Source of the DNA: Pseudomonadota bacterium
Lineage (GTDB): Bacteria; Pseudomonadota; Gammaproteobacteria; JAKAQQ01
Length of the DNA: 64,000 nt
Assembly (NCBI GenBank): GCA_027365475.1
Contig: DAHXNI010000080.1
Location: 5,490 to 69,489 of the forward strand
Direction of reading: 5' to 3'
The notes below the pieces were generated by a model. It saw only the letters and a program-made list of their open reading frames with translations. It had not been told where the DNA came from and made no database searches. A program made the position numbers and the translations under genes. This document shows positions 28,755-39,966 of the stretch, piece after piece. The number at the start of each line of letters is the position of its first letter. Position 1 is the stretch's first letter.

Positions 28755-30332
28755 ATGCCAAAAGGACGAAAAGCCGCCGCCTCTTCACAACATGGCGCAA
28801 CGGTGGGGTATGAAGCCCAACTTTGGCAGATGGCCGATGCCCTGCGTGGCAGCATGGACGCTGGCGAATACAAGCATGTCGTCCTGGGACTCATCTTCCT
28901 CAAATACATCTCCGACGCTTTTGAGGAACAGCACGCCCTGCTCCAAGGAGAGCAGGGAAAGGGTGCTGACCCGGAAGATCCGGACGAGTATCGGGCTCAT
29001 AACATCTTTTGGGTCCCGCCCGAGGCGCGCTGGACGCACCTGAAAGCCCAGGCCAAGCAGCCCACCATCGGGCAACTCGTGGACGACGCCATGACCGGGA
29101 TCGAACGCGATAACCAACAACTCAAGGGTGTGTTGCCGAGGGACTATGCACGGCCTGTACTCGACAAGCAGCGGCTCGGCCAGCTCATTGATCTCATCAG
29201 CAATATCCGAGTCGGTGACCGCGAGGCCCGATCCAAGGACGTGCTCGGCCGGGTCTATGAATACTTCCTCTCCCAGTTCGCGAGCGCCGAGGGCAAGAAG
29301 GGTGGGGAGTTCTACACCCCCCGTTGCATAGTCAAGCTTCTGGTCGCAATGATCGAGCCCTACAAGGGCCGGGTATACGACCCCTGCTGCGGCTCCTCGG
29401 GCATGTTCGTACAGTCGGTGGAGTTCATCCACGCGCACGCCAATGGCAATGGAAACGGCGGCAAAGCCAAGTCGGATATTTCGATCTACGGTCAGGAGTC
29501 GAACTACACCACCTGGCGGCTGGCCAAGATGAATCTTGCCATTCGCGGCATCGAAGGCCAAATCGCCCATGGCGATACCTTTCACGCCGACCGCCACCCG
29601 GACCTCAAGGCGGATTTCATCCTGGCCAACCCCCCGTTTAACGTGAGTGACTGGGGCGGTGAGCGGCTACGCGACGACAAACGCTGGCGATATGGCGTTC
29701 CGTACGCCAGAAACGCCAACTTCGCCTGGGTGCAGCACATCGTCCACCACCTGGCCCCCGCGGGCCTCGCGGGTTTCGTGCTGGCCAACGGCTCCATGTC
29801 CTCCAACCAGTCCGGCGAGGGCGAGATCCGCAAGAACCTCATCGAGGCCGACCTCGTGGATTGCATGGTGGCGCTCCCCGGCCAGCTCTTCTACTCGACG
29901 CCGATCCCGGCCTGCCTATGGTTCCTCACCCGCGACAAGAAGAACCACACCTTTCGTGACCGCCGCCAGCAGATCCTCTTCCTGGACGCCCGTAAGATGG
30001 GTCGTCTCGTAGACCGCACCCACCGCGAGCTGACCGACGAAGATGTCGCCCGCATCGCCCGTACCTACCATGCCTGGCGGGGAGAGGAGGATGCGGGCAA
30101 GTACACCGACATCCCGGGCTTCTGCAAGAGCGCGGCGCTCGAAGAAGTCCGCAAGCACGGCCACGTCCTTACGCCTGGGCGCTATGTCGGCGCCGCGGCA
30201 CAGGAGGACGATGGCGAGCCGTTCGAGGAGAAGATGCGGCGGCTCACCACCACACTGCGGGAGCAGAAGACGGAAGCTGCGAAGCTCGACGCCGCCATCG
30301 ACGCCAACCTGAAGGAGTTGGGGTATGGATAA
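28755..30332 (+). CDS. hsdM: Type I restriction-modification system, DNA methyltransferase subunit HsdM
   Basis: 525 aa; N-terminal HsdM_N ([33 protein letters not shown]), SAM-binding [10 protein letters not shown], catalytic NPPF ([12 protein letters not shown]). Confidence 0.9.
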
Positions 30333-30651
30333 GGCTTTCGACATCGAAATTCTGCGCGGAGCCGCGGCACAGGGGCGCCTTCACTGGCACCAGCATGCGT
30401 TGGAGCGCTTTCTGGAGCGCGGGATTTCCCGCGCCGAGATCGTAAGCGCTATCATGAACGGTGAGGTGATCGAGGTCTACCCAACGGATCGCCCGTATCC
30501 GAGTTGTCTCATTCTGTACGTGGAGGCGGAGCCGGTGCACGTGGTGGCCGCCGCCGAGCCTGCCACGCGGATGTGCCATGTCATCACCGCGTACCGGCCG
30601 GACCTTGAGTATTTCGAACCGGATTTCAAGACCAGGAGGAAAAAGTCATGA
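30325..30651 (+). CDS. DUF4258-family protein (putative toxin of a DUF4258/YgiT pair)
   Basis: 108 aa; [30 protein letters not shown]...HVVAA...VITAYRPD fits the DUF4258 pattern. 8-bp overlap with hsdM, 4-bp overlap with the next gene. Confidence 0.6.
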
Positions 30652-30893
30652 GCGAGGACTTCGGGCATTGCCCCCTTTGCGGCGGCGAAAAGCAACCGGG
30701 CACCACGACCTTTGCCGTCGATTTGAAATTCGGCGTCGTGGTGGTCAGGGAAGTTCCCGCGTTCGTCTGCACGAAATGTGGCGATGCGTGGATCGACGAT
30801 CCGGTGGCGGCGAAGCTGGAAGGCATCGTTACGGACGCGCGTCGCAAGCACGCCGTGGTGGAGGTTACGCACTGGCAGCAGGTAGCGGCGTGA
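30648..30893 (+). CDS. YgiT-type zinc-finger protein (MqsA-like antitoxin partner of DUF4258)
   Basis: 81 aa; CPLCGGEK...REVPAFVCTKCGDAW two CxxC pairs, typical YgiT/MqsA N-terminal zinc finger. Confidence 0.65.
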   Translation: MSEDFGHCPLCGGEKQPGTTTFAVDLKFGVVVVREVPAFVCTKCGDAWIDDPVAAKLEGIVTDARRKHAVVEVTHWQQVAA

Positions 30894-36835: not shown

Positions 36836-39800
36836 TGAGTTTGTTTTCTGAATCCACCGTCGAATCAGCCGCCCTTGGGTGGCTGGAGTCCCTCGGTTAT
36901 GCCATCCTCAACGGTCCCGATATTGCCATCGGCATGCCGGATGCCGAGCGTAGCGATTACGGCCAAGTGGTGTTGCCGCAGCGGCTGCGCGAAGCCCTAG
37001 CGCGACTTAACCCCGAGCTTCCCGCCGAGGCGCTGGAAGACGCCTTCCGCAAGCTGACGCGGCCGGAGGGTGTTGAGCCAGTGGCGCGCAACCACGGCGT
37101 ACATCGCCTTCTGGTGGAAGGGGTGACGGTCGAATATCGCACCGCTGCTGGTGAGATCCGTGGTGCACAAGCACAGGTAATCGACTGCGATATTCCAGAA
37201 AATAATGACTGGCTCGCGGTCAACCAGTTCACCGTTACCGAAAACAAGCACAATCGGCGGCCGGATGTGGTGCTATTCATCAACGGCCTGCCGCTGGTGC
37301 TGATCGAGTTGAAGAATGCCGCTGACGAAAACGCCACCCTATGGTCGGCTTTTCAGCAGCTCCAGACCTACCAGGCGGAACTTCCCACGCTCTTTGCCTA
37401 TAACGCGCTGCTGGTGATTTCAGACGGTGTCGAGGCGCGCATCGGCACGTTTACCGCCGGACGGGAGTGGTTCAAACCCTGGCGCACGATTGCCGGTGAA
37501 ACGCTGGCCGATCCCAACCTGCCGGAATTGCAGGTGATGCTGGAGGGTGTGTTCAATAAGCGGCGATTGCTCGCTCTTCTGCGGGATTTCATTGTCTTCG
37601 AAGATGAAGGCAGAGGGCGCTTAGTCAAGAAGATGGCGGGCTATCACCAGTTCCACGCCGTGAATGTGGCTGTCGCAGAGACACTCCGAGCGGCGAAACT
37701 GGGGGCAGCCGAAGCCATGGGGCGTTATGAGAGTGGACGCCAACCCGGTGGCGATCCCGGTGATCGGCGCATTGGCGTCGTCTGGCATACCCAGGGCTCC
37801 GGCAAGAGCTTGACCATGGTTTTCTATGCCGGTCGCATTATCCGCGAACCCGCGATGGCGAATCCCACTATTGTGGTCCTCACCGACCGCAACGACTTGG
37901 ACGATCAGCTTTTCGGTACCTTTTCCCGCTGCACCGACATGTTACGCCAGCCGCCGGTACAGGCCGACAGCCGAGCTGATCTCCACGACAAACTCAACGT
38001 GGATGCGGGAGGTGTGGTGTTTACCACTCTCCAGAAGTTCTTCCCCGAAACGAAAGGTGACCGGCACCCGGTGCTTTCAACACGGCATAACATTGTGGTG
38101 ATTGCCGATGAGGCGCATCGTAGTCAGTATGACTTCATTGATGGCTTTGCCCGCCACATGCGAGATGCACTCCCCCATGCCTCCTTCATCGGCTTTACCG
38201 GCACCCCGATCGAGCAAACCGATGCCAATACCCGGGCAGTGTTCGGCGATTACATCAGCATTTATGATATCCAGCGGGCGGTTGAAGACCGGGCGACCGT
38301 ACCGATTTACTACGAGAGCCGCCTTGCCAAGCTCAATCTCAATGAAGCGGAAAAGCCGACCATCGACGCTTCCTTCGAGGAAGTCACCGAGGGCGAGGAA
38401 GTGGACCGCAAGGAAAAACTCAAGAGCAGGTGGGCGCAGCTTGAAGCTGTGGTCGGCGCGGAGACGCGTCTCAAGCGAATTGCTGAGGATATCGTCTCCC
38501 ATTTCGAGGCACGACAGGAGGCCATCGACGGCAAGGCGATGATTGTGTGCATGAGCCGGCGTATCTGCCTGGATCTCCACGATGAGATCAAGAAACTGCG
38601 CCCGTCCTGGATTCACGCCGATGATGATAAGGGTTTGATGAAGGTAGTCATGACTGGCAACGCCTCGGAAGGTCCCCGGGTGGCTGAACACGCGCGTAAT
38701 AAGGCACGGCGCGAAGACTTGGCCAATCGCTTTCGGGATGCCGGGGACCCCCTGAAACTCGTCATCGTCCGGGACATGTGGCTCACAGGCTTCGATGCCC
38801 CGAGCCTTCATACCATGTATCTCGACAAGCCCATGCGCAACCATGGGCTGATGCAGACCATCGCGCGGGTAAACCGGGTATTCAAGAACAAACCTGGCGG
38901 ACTGGTTGTGGATTATCTGGGACTGGCGCCGGCACTCAAGGCGGCGCTCGCCACCTACACGGAAAGCGGCGGTACGGGCCGGACCGCTATTGACCAGAAA
39001 GAAGCCATCGCGGTCATGCAGGAGAAATACGAGATCTGCACCGGACTGCTGCATGGTTTCGATTGGTCCCGGTGGAGTTCGGGTACCCCACAAGAGCGCT
39101 TAGCGCTGCTACCGGCCGCCCAAGAACATCTCCTCAAACAAGAGGACGGTAAAACCCGTTGGCTTCAAGCTGTGCAGGCATTGTCTCAAGCTTTTGCCCT
39201 CGCGGTTCCGAGTGCCGAGGCCCTCGATATCCGCGATGATGTGGCATTCTTCCAGGCCTTGAGGGCAAGTCTTGCCAAGCGTGCACCGGGAGAAGCGAGC
39301 TCGGAAGAAGATCTCGACCAAGCGGTTCGCCAGATCGTCTCCCGGGCGGTGGCTTCGGAAGGCATCCTGGATATTTTCGCTGCGGCGGGTTTGAAAAAAC
39401 CCGATCTCTCGATCCTCTCCGAAGAGTTCCTGGCAGAGGTACGCGGCATGCCCCAGAAGAATCTGGCGGTTGAATTGTTGCGCAAGCTTCTGGACGGTGA
39501 GATCCGCACCAGCGGTCGCAAGAATATAGTGCAGGCCCGGACTTTCTCAGAGATGCTGGAGAAAACCCTGCATCGCTACCAGAGTCGGGCGATCGAAGCC
39601 GCCCAGGTCATCGAGGAACTCATTGATCTGGCCCGGGATATCCGGGAGGCCCAGGCGCGGGGCGAACAACTGGGATTGACGGACGATGAGATTGCGTTCT
39701 ACGATGCGCTGGAAACCAATGACAGCGCAGTGAAGGTGTTGGGCGAGCCGACGCTCAAAGACATTGCCCGGGAACTGGTCAAGACTGTGCGCAGCAATGT

Positions 39801-39966
39801 CACCATTGACTGGACGCTGCGGGAAAATGTCCGCGCTAAACTGCGCGTCTCGGTCAAGCGCATCTTGCGCGAGTACGGCTATCCGCCGGATAAGCAGGAA
39901 AAAGCCACACAGACTGTTCTTGAACAGGCAGAACTCTTATCCGGCCAATGGGCTGAGGTCTCATGA
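36835..39966 (+). CDS. hsdR: Type I restriction enzyme, endonuclease/helicase subunit HsdR
   Basis: 1043 aa; N-terminal nuclease domain, SF2 helicase motifs ([10 protein letters not shown]; [15 protein letters not shown] box), C-terminal HsdR_C. Confidence 0.9.

Follow-up and report, generated by a model that had tools for sequence, protein, structure and literature searches.

A type I restriction-modification operon on a tRNA-Met island, with four predicted defence and toxin–antitoxin cassettes at its inter-subunit junctions

What is to be made of a type I restriction-modification (RM) operon in which six other genes stand between hsdM and hsdR? The operon in question occupies positions 28755–39966 of a 64,000-nucleotide stretch of DNA (hereafter 'the window'; contig DAHXNI010000080.1, positions 5,490 to 69,489) that comes from a JGI metagenome and belongs to an uncultured gammaproteobacterium. 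A preliminary description of the DNA had read it as an RM operon used as a scaffold for four co-oriented accessory modules, and had suggested that the R subunit is expressed only after read-through of all of them. The scaffold is borne out by the analysis reported here. With a probability of about 0.72, we read the locus as an intact hsdM–hsdS–hsdR operon on an island at a tRNA-Met gene, in which both inter-subunit junctions act as cargo slots for four autonomous defence or toxin–antitoxin (TA) cassettes. Part of the history behind this arrangement can be seen directly in the locus and part is reconstructed; the functions of the modules we infer from their families.

The operon comprises nine co-oriented open reading frames (ORFs) on the plus strand, in the order hsdM, DUF4258, a YgiT zinc-finger gene, orf292, hsdS, a reverse transcriptase (RT) gene, a helix-turn-helix (HTH)/M78 peptidase gene, DUF4411 and hsdR. 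ORF positions and profile matches in Pfam, NCBIfam and PADLOC confirm the gene order and identities given in the preliminary description, and its five overlaps are exact (hsdM/DUF4258, 8 bp; DUF4258/YgiT, 4 bp; hsdS/RT, 4 bp; peptidase/DUF4411, 4 bp; DUF4411/hsdR, 1 bp). Its statement that the modules are all translationally coupled was wrong, as three junctions are gapped: 357 bp lie between YgiT and orf292, 105–111 bp between orf292 and hsdS, and 103 bp between the RT and HTH/M78 peptidase genes. The six non-RM genes are all on the plus strand, and none of them matches a transposase or integrase family in profile scans. The slot between hsdM and hsdS (M/S slot) holds the DUF4258/YgiT pair and orf292, and that between hsdS and hsdR (S/R slot) holds the gene of an Abi-P2-type RT and a peptidase/DUF4411 pair. 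Gene composition is mosaic, with a GC content at third codon positions (GC3) of 0.78 in hsdM, 0.56 in orf292 and 0.65 in the RT gene.

The RM enzyme itself appears complete. The intact hsdM gene (28755–30332) encodes a 525-amino-acid (aa) methyltransferase subunit that matches PF02384 (N6_Mtase, E = 4e-106), PF12161 (HsdM_N, 5e-28) and PADLOC MTase_I (9e-223) and carries an NPPF motif at residue 292. The specificity gene hsdS ends at 33524 and starts either at 32235 (TTG, 429 aa) or at 32241 (ATG, 427 aa), the ATG being the start used in the source contig's gene call; its product contains two target-recognition domains (PF01420, in two matched stretches) and matches PADLOC Specificity_I (2e-107, residues 103–426). 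The restriction/translocase gene hsdR (36835–39966) is likewise intact and encodes 1043 aa with HSDR_N, SWI2_SNF2, T1R_D3 and T1RH-like_C domains. HsdR matches TIGR00348 (2e-169, 566 bits against a cut-off of 285), is covered by PADLOC REase_I from residue 4 to 1038, and displays a Walker A motif (GSGKS at 321), a DEAH box at 425 and a PD...ELK nuclease motif (PD..ExK). Inactivating mutations in hsdR or hsdM, which had been named beforehand as a sign of a decayed operon, were absent, and the catalytic motifs of HsdM, HsdR, the peptidase and the RT are all intact. By sequence, then, HsdM, HsdS and HsdR constitute a type I RM system for which methylation and restriction activity are predicted.

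The operon is carried on a 20.7-kb, integrase-bearing island at a tRNA-Met gene. The full tRNA-Met(CAT) gene (48898–48974, minus strand; ARAGORN) marks its proximal end, with nuoM/nuoN-like core genes beyond, and a tyrosine integrase gene (47771–48799, minus strand; PF00589, 2e-26) lies within it. The distal attachment repeat (approximately 28213–28265, minus strand) is a copy of the 3′ half of the tRNA-Met gene plus 8 nt, forming a perfect repeat of ∼53 bp with the sequence at 48898–48974; a 32-mer search returned 0 mismatches at this repeat and at 48898, where none would be expected by chance.

How the cargo entered the operon is most visible in the M/S slot. Comparison with orthologous loci, which had been proposed as a way to locate insertion scars, revealed two relics of the hsdM 3′ end in that slot and none in the S/R slot. 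The first relic (31150–31253, plus strand, ending ...LEQRFAESERLQKTIRENRRRFLS*) matches a hidden Markov model (HMM) of the HsdM C-terminus with E = 0.002 at profile positions 26–52, and its stop codon overlaps the start of orf292 as ATGA. The second (32207–32248, plus strand) matches the same HMM with E = 0.003, is identical to the true hsdM end at 22 of 26 DNA positions, and has a stop codon that overlaps the hsdS ATG exactly as that of the intact hsdM does in cargo-free orthologues. These two relics are the best non-self matches of the HMM among the 471 six-frame fragments of the region. A DNA repeat brackets the entire M/S cargo, with AACCTGAAGGAGTTGGGGTATGG at the hsdM end and AATCTGAAGGAGCTTGGGTATGG before hsdS; when its copies are aligned, the DUF4258 ATG falls within the hsdM tail precisely where the ancestral hsdS ATG stood, and comparison of orthologues indicates that hsdM and hsdS ancestrally overlapped by 11 bp. 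Equivalent hsdM relics are found in about 12 related loci (given L numbers here). They precede hsdS in L002, L005, L015, L031, L041 and L089, with E values down to 6e-16, and the arrangement of a relic followed by an orf292 homologue is repeated in L177 (E = 1e-7).

Because two hsdM relics are present and the DUF4258 ATG sits at the old hsdS ATG, we propose that the M/S cassettes entered one by one, through recombination at the conserved hsdM 3′ end and hsdS start, and inherited their coupling. Each insertion would have duplicated the hsdM tail and landed the incoming ATG at the old hsdS position, the likely order being M–S, then M–orf292–S, then M–DUF4258-YgiT–orf292–S; the mosaic GC3 fits such a stepwise history. 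With the incoming ATG in that position, the tight coupling seems to have been taken over from the native junction, and not to have evolved as a new regulatory device. More generally, the hsdM tail and hsdS start may serve as a recombination docking site at which defence cassettes are swapped between RM operons of unrelated phyla.

A variation on this theme was observed in L002 (11563–12903) and L005 (11666–12925), where the gene embedded in the M/S slot reads into the hsdM-tail relic and the cargo protein ends in the HsdM C-terminal peptide (...LGYG). That peptide could tether these proteins to the RM complex, or could be an accident of insertion.

The locus had been called unusual for holding four different modules in one operon, an assessment that does not survive comparison with its relatives. 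Embedding in type I RM operons is frequent, and 96.7% of embedded genes are co-oriented with them (Payne et al. 2024, bioRxiv 10.1101/2024.01.29.577857); worked examples include PrrC, DarTG2 (PMC12255303) and TgvAB (PMC11411939). We collected 80 orthologous loci with HsdM 72–86% identical to that of the window, 52 of which have hsdM, hsdS and hsdR all placed, and 51 of these 52 hold at least one ORF between the RM genes. Direct hsdM/hsdS overlaps (11 or 17 bp) are seen in about one third of the 52 loci and adjacent hsdS and hsdR in about 6 of them. The distance from the end of hsdM to the start of hsdR ranges from 1.3 to 9.3 kb across loci, the 6.5 kb of the window being exceeded in 12 of 55. 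The 135 embedded plus-strand ORFs match 61 Pfam families, mostly defence or TA (among them Fic/SoFic, HEPN-NTase, DUF1828/1829, Abi_C, DUF3644, Schlafen, AAA_21, HerA, GmrSD, AbiE, TIR and SIR2), and embedded ORFs also match the PADLOC candidates PDC-S04, PDC-S05, PDC-S23 and PDC-M24.

Two of these loci match the window in number of modules, with at least four each and with overlaps of the same sort, 4 bp and 1 bp long. The order in L010 is hsdM, a YhcG nuclease gene, hsdS, SIR2 with HerA, a 109-aa ORF, DUF1828/9, an 82-aa ORF, AAA_14/DUF4143 and hsdR; that in L046 is hsdM, an HTH-ImmA gene with a 75-aa ORF, hsdS, Fic, DUF433 with PIN_10, Schlafen and hsdR. A further locus, L092, contains five tightly coupled embedded genes. 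Though well stocked, the operon in the window is therefore an ordinary example of a known embedding pattern. Exact copies of it were found only in the source JGI metagenome contig and in one Logan assembly.

The carrier RM lineage (HsdM 72–86% and HsdR 60–78% identical) was encountered in Planctomycetota, Binatia, Acidobacteriota, Chloroflexota, Proteobacteria, Bacillota and two metagenome-assembled genomes of methanogens. Such a range of phyla suggests that the carrier operon has itself been spread very widely by horizontal transfer.

Each of the four cassettes recurs elsewhere in its own slot: DUF4258 after hsdM, orf292 before hsdS, Abi-P2 after hsdS, and the peptidase/DUF4411 pair before hsdR. 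We assume from their families that the modules are autonomous, so that each would form its own layer of defence. The RM enzyme would cut unmethylated DNA, the Abi-P2 protein would bring about abortive infection by protein-primed, untemplated DNA synthesis, and the two TA pairs and the HEPN protein would act as growth-arrest or RNase effectors triggered by infection.

The first cassette begins with DUF4258 (30325–30651; PF14076, 5e-22), a predicted toxin of the RelE/ParE superfamily with a BECR fold; toxins of this family pair or fuse with MqsA-like antitoxins (PMC11980606). The gene that follows (30648–30893) encodes an MqsA-like YgiT zinc-finger protein of 81 aa, the predicted antitoxin, with CPLCGG and CTKCGD motifs and a match to TIGR03831 (4e-11, 43 bits against a cut-off of 20). 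It consists of the zinc finger alone, and the full MqsA model TIGR03830 scores only 17.7 bits against a cut-off of 61.8, over positions 1–61 of 127. The arrangement resembles MqsR/MqsA and the DUF4258–MqsA modules (PMC11980606) in that a BECR-fold toxin gene comes first and overlaps that of a YgiT-zinc-finger antitoxin by 4 bp; unlike MqsA, the 81-aa protein lacks the C-terminal XRE HTH, and because of this it may not regulate itself through DNA binding. The hsdM–DUF4258 junction recurs in L033 and L089, in the latter with the same 8-bp overlap. In L089, the closest relative in the M/S slot (5627–7332), the called hsdM ends early and its conserved C-terminus is encoded in a different frame that reaches as far as the DUF4258 overlap, which makes this hsdM either frameshifted or the product of an assembly error.

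The cassette next to hsdR pairs a 383-aa RmrA-like putative antitoxin (35187–36338), in which an HTH-like region is joined to an M78/ImmA-IrrE metallopeptidase (PF06114, 2e-19; PADLOC RmrA, 1e-19, residues 6–303), with a predicted PIN-like nuclease toxin, DUF4411 (36335–36835; PF14367, 6e-55). The peptidase has a HELAH (HExxH) motif at residue 220 and matches PHROG 2439, 'transcriptional regulator', at 5e-45; Pfam HTH models remained above E = 0.01, and the HTH is assigned from the coverage of the RmrA and PHROG 2439 profiles. DUF4411 has been described as a PIN-like domain paired with HTH-DUF955 (PMC5499597); the protein in the window has no PADLOC match at E ≤ 0.01 and hence is not a catalogued RmrT. 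As in RosmerTA and the HTH-DUF955 plus PIN modules (PMC10440598, PMC5499597), an HTH and ImmA/IrrE antitoxin gene is coupled to a downstream toxin gene. The pair differs from RosmerTA in that its toxin matches no PADLOC RmrT model and its second gene is joined to hsdR by a 1-bp overlap. In L075, where the RT gene is missing, this pair again immediately precedes hsdR.

A block of Abi-P2, RmrA-like peptidase and DUF4411 genes, 55–57% identical, is also present downstream of hsdR in L141 (787–7357) and in part in L172 (380–2211). The case for an obligate three-gene unit is too weak, given the pair without RT in L075 and the lack of the pair beside most RT relatives; on these few cases the three genes may be a co-mobile unit.

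The RT gene (33521–35083) encodes a 520-aa RT-like polymerase that matches PADLOC AbiP2 at 4e-204 (residues 12–514) and aligns over its full length with PDB 7R08 (5e-96, query residues 13–511 against chain positions 32–540), C-terminal helical domain included. It carries YRDD at about residue 279, and its Tyr42 aligns with a tyrosine at position 61 of the 7R08 chain, which is the priming Tyr61 (PMC9508834) only if the chain numbering matches that of the paper. Enzymes of this type carry out protein-primed, template-free DNA synthesis (PMC9508834). Judged by these matches the protein is a true Abi-P2, a UG/Abi class 1 polymerase, with predicted polymerase activity and phage exclusion. We retrieved 80 metagenomic relatives with 49–71% identity, for which counts of genomic context are lower bounds. 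At least 21 of the 51 with 1 kb or more of upstream sequence (at least 41%) have an hsdS ending no more than about 40 bp upstream of the RT start, and hsdR lies downstream in at least 14 of 48, 9 of these 14 having 0.8–2.3 kb of cargo in between, as here. The searchable literature contained no mention of a link between this Abi-P2 clade and type I RM operons.

The second M/S cassette is a single gene, orf292 (31251–32129), for a 292-aa predicted RM-associated effector of an unnamed family, with an N-terminal beta-sandwich (residues 1–156) and a C-terminal HEPN-fold domain (175–291). Its structure model (predicted local distance difference test score 85) shows an all-beta N-terminal sandwich followed by a C-terminal four-helix domain; in the model the latter is a four-helix, up-down HEPN fold, like that of the PrrC, RloC, RnlA and LsoA effectors. 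Searches of Pfam, NCBIfam, PADLOC, PHROGs and PDB sequences returned no match to it with the cut-off relaxed to E ≤ 1, and no ATPase family match was obtained with Pfam and further profile searches. The label 'orphan' that it had received is apt as far as Pfam, NCBIfam, PADLOC and PHROGs models go and fails for its relatives, since 65 close homologue clusters exist and a profile search yields 1,376 clusters at E ≤ 1e-10 (clustered at 50% identity), all of ∼290 aa. Residues R197, R204, K237, R240, H257, D259 and D271 are invariant in the family, and R246-x6-H253 fits the Rx4-6H motif, with the arginine in 29 and the histidine in 31 of 35 sequences.

Genomic context was sampled for 11 members of the family, and in 9 of the 11 the gene lies in or beside a type I RM operon. 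It directly precedes hsdS in eight of them (the window, L084, L089, L092, L143, L175, L177 and L180), and three of these loci (L092, L175 and L180) have an intact hsdM that shares 4 bp with the start of the orf292 homologue; in L179 it leads an R–S–M operon. The family is a HEPN-fold family that is absent from Pfam, NCBIfam, PADLOC and PHROGs and, in the contexts sampled, mostly located beside hsdS. The idea that orf292 is a standard part of this particular RM lineage was rejected, as none of the 80 HsdM-orthologous loci carries it.

The two homologues found outside any detectable RM operon, in L085 (8001–12578) and L088 (8001–14101), adjoin other defence-like genes. One is next to genes for a 413-aa protein with a faint metallo-beta-lactamase match and a HerA/DUF87 ATPase, and the other is near a ubiquitin-like/ThiF/BubE (Bil-type) cluster.

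Several points weigh against our reading of the locus. Searches of the S/R slot with HMMs of the HsdS C-terminus and the HsdR N-terminus found no relics that would show how the cargo entered there (a match of the HsdR model on hsdM was discarded as an artefact of misplaced start estimates in its training set). The E values of the two M/S relics are modest, and the first is visible only at the protein level. HsdS and HsdR in the relatives were located by single-query tblastn and crude ORF calling, which makes the counts among them approximate. A consensus scan for sigma-70 promoters and terminators performed at the level of chance (7 promoter-like sites against 6.3 expected, and 9 terminator-like sites against 13.9) and cannot decide the structure of the transcript. 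Finally, orf292 and this clade of Abi-P2 keep their positions strongly, which could mean that they depend on the RM enzyme.

That last point underlies the alternative that survives best, modelled on PrrC and held here as a tentative possibility, in which orf292 and perhaps the Abi-P2 clade bind HsdM/S(R) or sense its state and are released as toxic effectors when an anti-restriction protein disables the RM system. For orf292 in particular one could speculate, at a similarly low level of confidence, that the family is a dedicated type I RM partner: a guard at the hsdM/hsdS junction, coupled to hsdM, held by the methyltransferase and released as an RNase upon anti-restriction attack by a phage. 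The RM linkage of 9 of the 11 sampled orf292 contexts, with eight directly before hsdS and three overlapping the hsdM stop, argues in this direction, as do the PrrC-like HEPN fold, the placement of at least 41% of the Abi-P2 relatives with sufficient flank directly after hsdS, and the precedent of PrrC itself (Payne et al. 2024). The orf292 homologues in L085 and L088, however, and many of the Abi-P2 relatives, lie outside any detectable RM operon; the E. coli Abi-P2 is reported to work alone in the P2 prophage, and orf292 is without the ABC-ATPase domain of PrrC. The positional bias could moreover be a simple outcome of cassettes recombining from one RM locus to another, of which the hsdM relics give a hint. 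The positional data are compatible with a tie to the RM enzyme but fall short of showing it.

The other substantial alternative is the one that the preliminary description had advanced: a single obligatory polycistronic unit of 11 kb, in which HsdR is made only after passage through all the inserts and would, for example, be delayed or dampened relative to the methylase. The nine genes are co-oriented and five of their junctions overlap by 1–8 bp; the consensus scan found no plus-strand terminator-like site in any gap and no consensus promoter inside the operon upstream of a gene. The only plus-strand promoter-like site upstream of a gene, TTGACC-17-TAGACT at 28337–28365, lies ∼390 bp before hsdM and matches the sigma-70 consensus at 9 of 12 positions, which is suggestive only. 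Precedent exists in the DarTG2-in-RM island, for which a single repressor-controlled promoter at the island head is documented (PMC12255303), and Payne et al. (2024) propose co-regulation as a benefit of embedding. Nothing in the sequence argues against co-transcription from a promoter of hsdM.

An obligatory unit is nonetheless unlikely in our view. The gaps of 357, ∼108 and 103 bp break the coupling and leave room for internal promoters, and the overlaps at hsdM/DUF4258 and at the second relic and hsdS were copied from the native M/S junction and did not arise as adaptations. Antitoxins of the HTH-peptidase type, such as the one encoded immediately before DUF4411 and hsdR, usually autoregulate their own promoter. 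The content and order of the cargo also vary freely among orthologues, and in L141 the RT–RmrA–DUF4411 block comes after hsdR, from which it follows that this gene order is not required. Internal promoters are likely in the three gaps, above all before the HTH-peptidase gene, where we infer a candidate site for an autoregulated promoter in the 103-bp spacer (35084–35186); a strict dependence of hsdR on read-through is therefore unlikely. That spacer contains an inverted repeat, GCATGCTGTT/AAGAGCATGC, which could be due to chance, and the remaining short repeats in the gaps were only short pairs compatible with chance. The spacer between the two M/S cassettes (30894–31149) is non-coding, with no ORF and no Rfam match; no structured RNA was matched in Rfam at E ≤ 1 over 27500–41500, and the 357-bp gap is not predicted to fold as RNA any more stably than its shuffled versions do (z = −0.6).

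It is very improbable that the locus is a sink in which genes passively accumulate while the island degenerates, with some or all of its genes non-functional. Gene relics do lie inside the operon, its flanks contain IS21, an IS4 transposase and a fragment of IS256, a second, degenerate island adjoins it, and a genomic sink is discussed by Payne et al. (2024), but the nine ORFs are full length with intact catalytic motifs and full-length profile coverage, no transposase or pseudogene lies within the operon, and the cargo families are kept as complete genes over long evolutionary distances.

The surroundings of the operon contain further defence-related and mobile genes. Three copies of the tRNA-Met 3′ end, at 22049–22080 (2 mismatches), 28217–28248 and 48898–48929, delimit a pair of tandem islands at a single tRNA-Met gene; the older island, which lacks an integrase, holds AbiEi/AbiEii, IS21 and a fragment of IS256. 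Downstream of hsdR and convergent to it lies a gene (40128–40880, minus strand) for a 250-aa TIR protein of the CAP12/Pycsar-effector type (PF10137, 6e-34), which no cyclase gene adjoins. Next comes a 323-aa ORF (41385–42356) with no Pfam or PHROGs family match; an IS4 transposase gene also follows hsdR.

If the reading of sequentially acquired, autonomous cassettes is right, the locus provides a worked example, at fine scale, of how a defence island is assembled. The conserved hsdM/hsdS overlap would act as a reusable insertion point, at which an incoming gene placed at the old start codon is expressed at once with the operon, so that tight coupling can be explained without invoking evolved regulation; duplicated hsdM tails would offer a searchable signature of cargo boundaries and insertion order. 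Two leads emerge, the widespread unnamed HEPN-fold family beside hsdS and the Abi-P2 clade that follows hsdS, and should either depend on the RM enzyme, the guard principle of PrrC would extend past its single classic case.

Comparison with characterized systems places these two leads more precisely. Like the gene of the anticodon nuclease PrrC in EcoprrI, orf292 is a HEPN-type effector gene at a fixed position in a type I RM operon, and in the contexts sampled its family is found mostly in that setting. The PrrC gene, in contrast, occupies the hsdS/hsdR interval and its product has an N-terminal ABC-ATPase, whereas orf292 lies between hsdM and hsdS and encodes a putative RM partner with a beta-sandwich in the N-terminal position. 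The RT shares with the Abi-P2 of the E. coli P2 prophage (PDB 7R08; PMC9508834) its full-length homology, the YRDD motif, the aligned tyrosine and the C-terminal helical domain; the E. coli enzyme is encoded at a prophage hot spot, and the clade described here in the hsdS/hsdR slot of type I RM operons.

At the level of the whole locus, the closest parallels are the 'guilt by embedding' defence systems of Payne et al. (2024), which sit inside type I RM, BREX, DISARM and Hma operons; it shares with them nested, co-oriented defence and TA genes, freedom from mobilome genes and diversity of cargo. Relative to those loci, the operon in the window has four modules spread over both slots, ranks among the top fifth of its lineage in length of inserted DNA, and includes in orf292 a gene that matches no PADLOC v2 candidate model. 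The part of that preprint available to us holds no description of the insertion route suggested by the hsdM-tail relics. Two published islands offer a second comparison, the DarTG2-in-RM island of enteropathogenic E. coli, with its regulator RptR (PMC12255303), and TgvAB on the Vibrio cholerae island VPI-2 (PMC11411939). No candidate for an RptR-like regulator gene stood out upstream of hsdM, where no test aimed at one was made. In both islands, as here, a co-oriented module is inserted between type I RM genes on a genomic island; each of them has one embedded two-gene module, whereas the operon described here has four, of different families.

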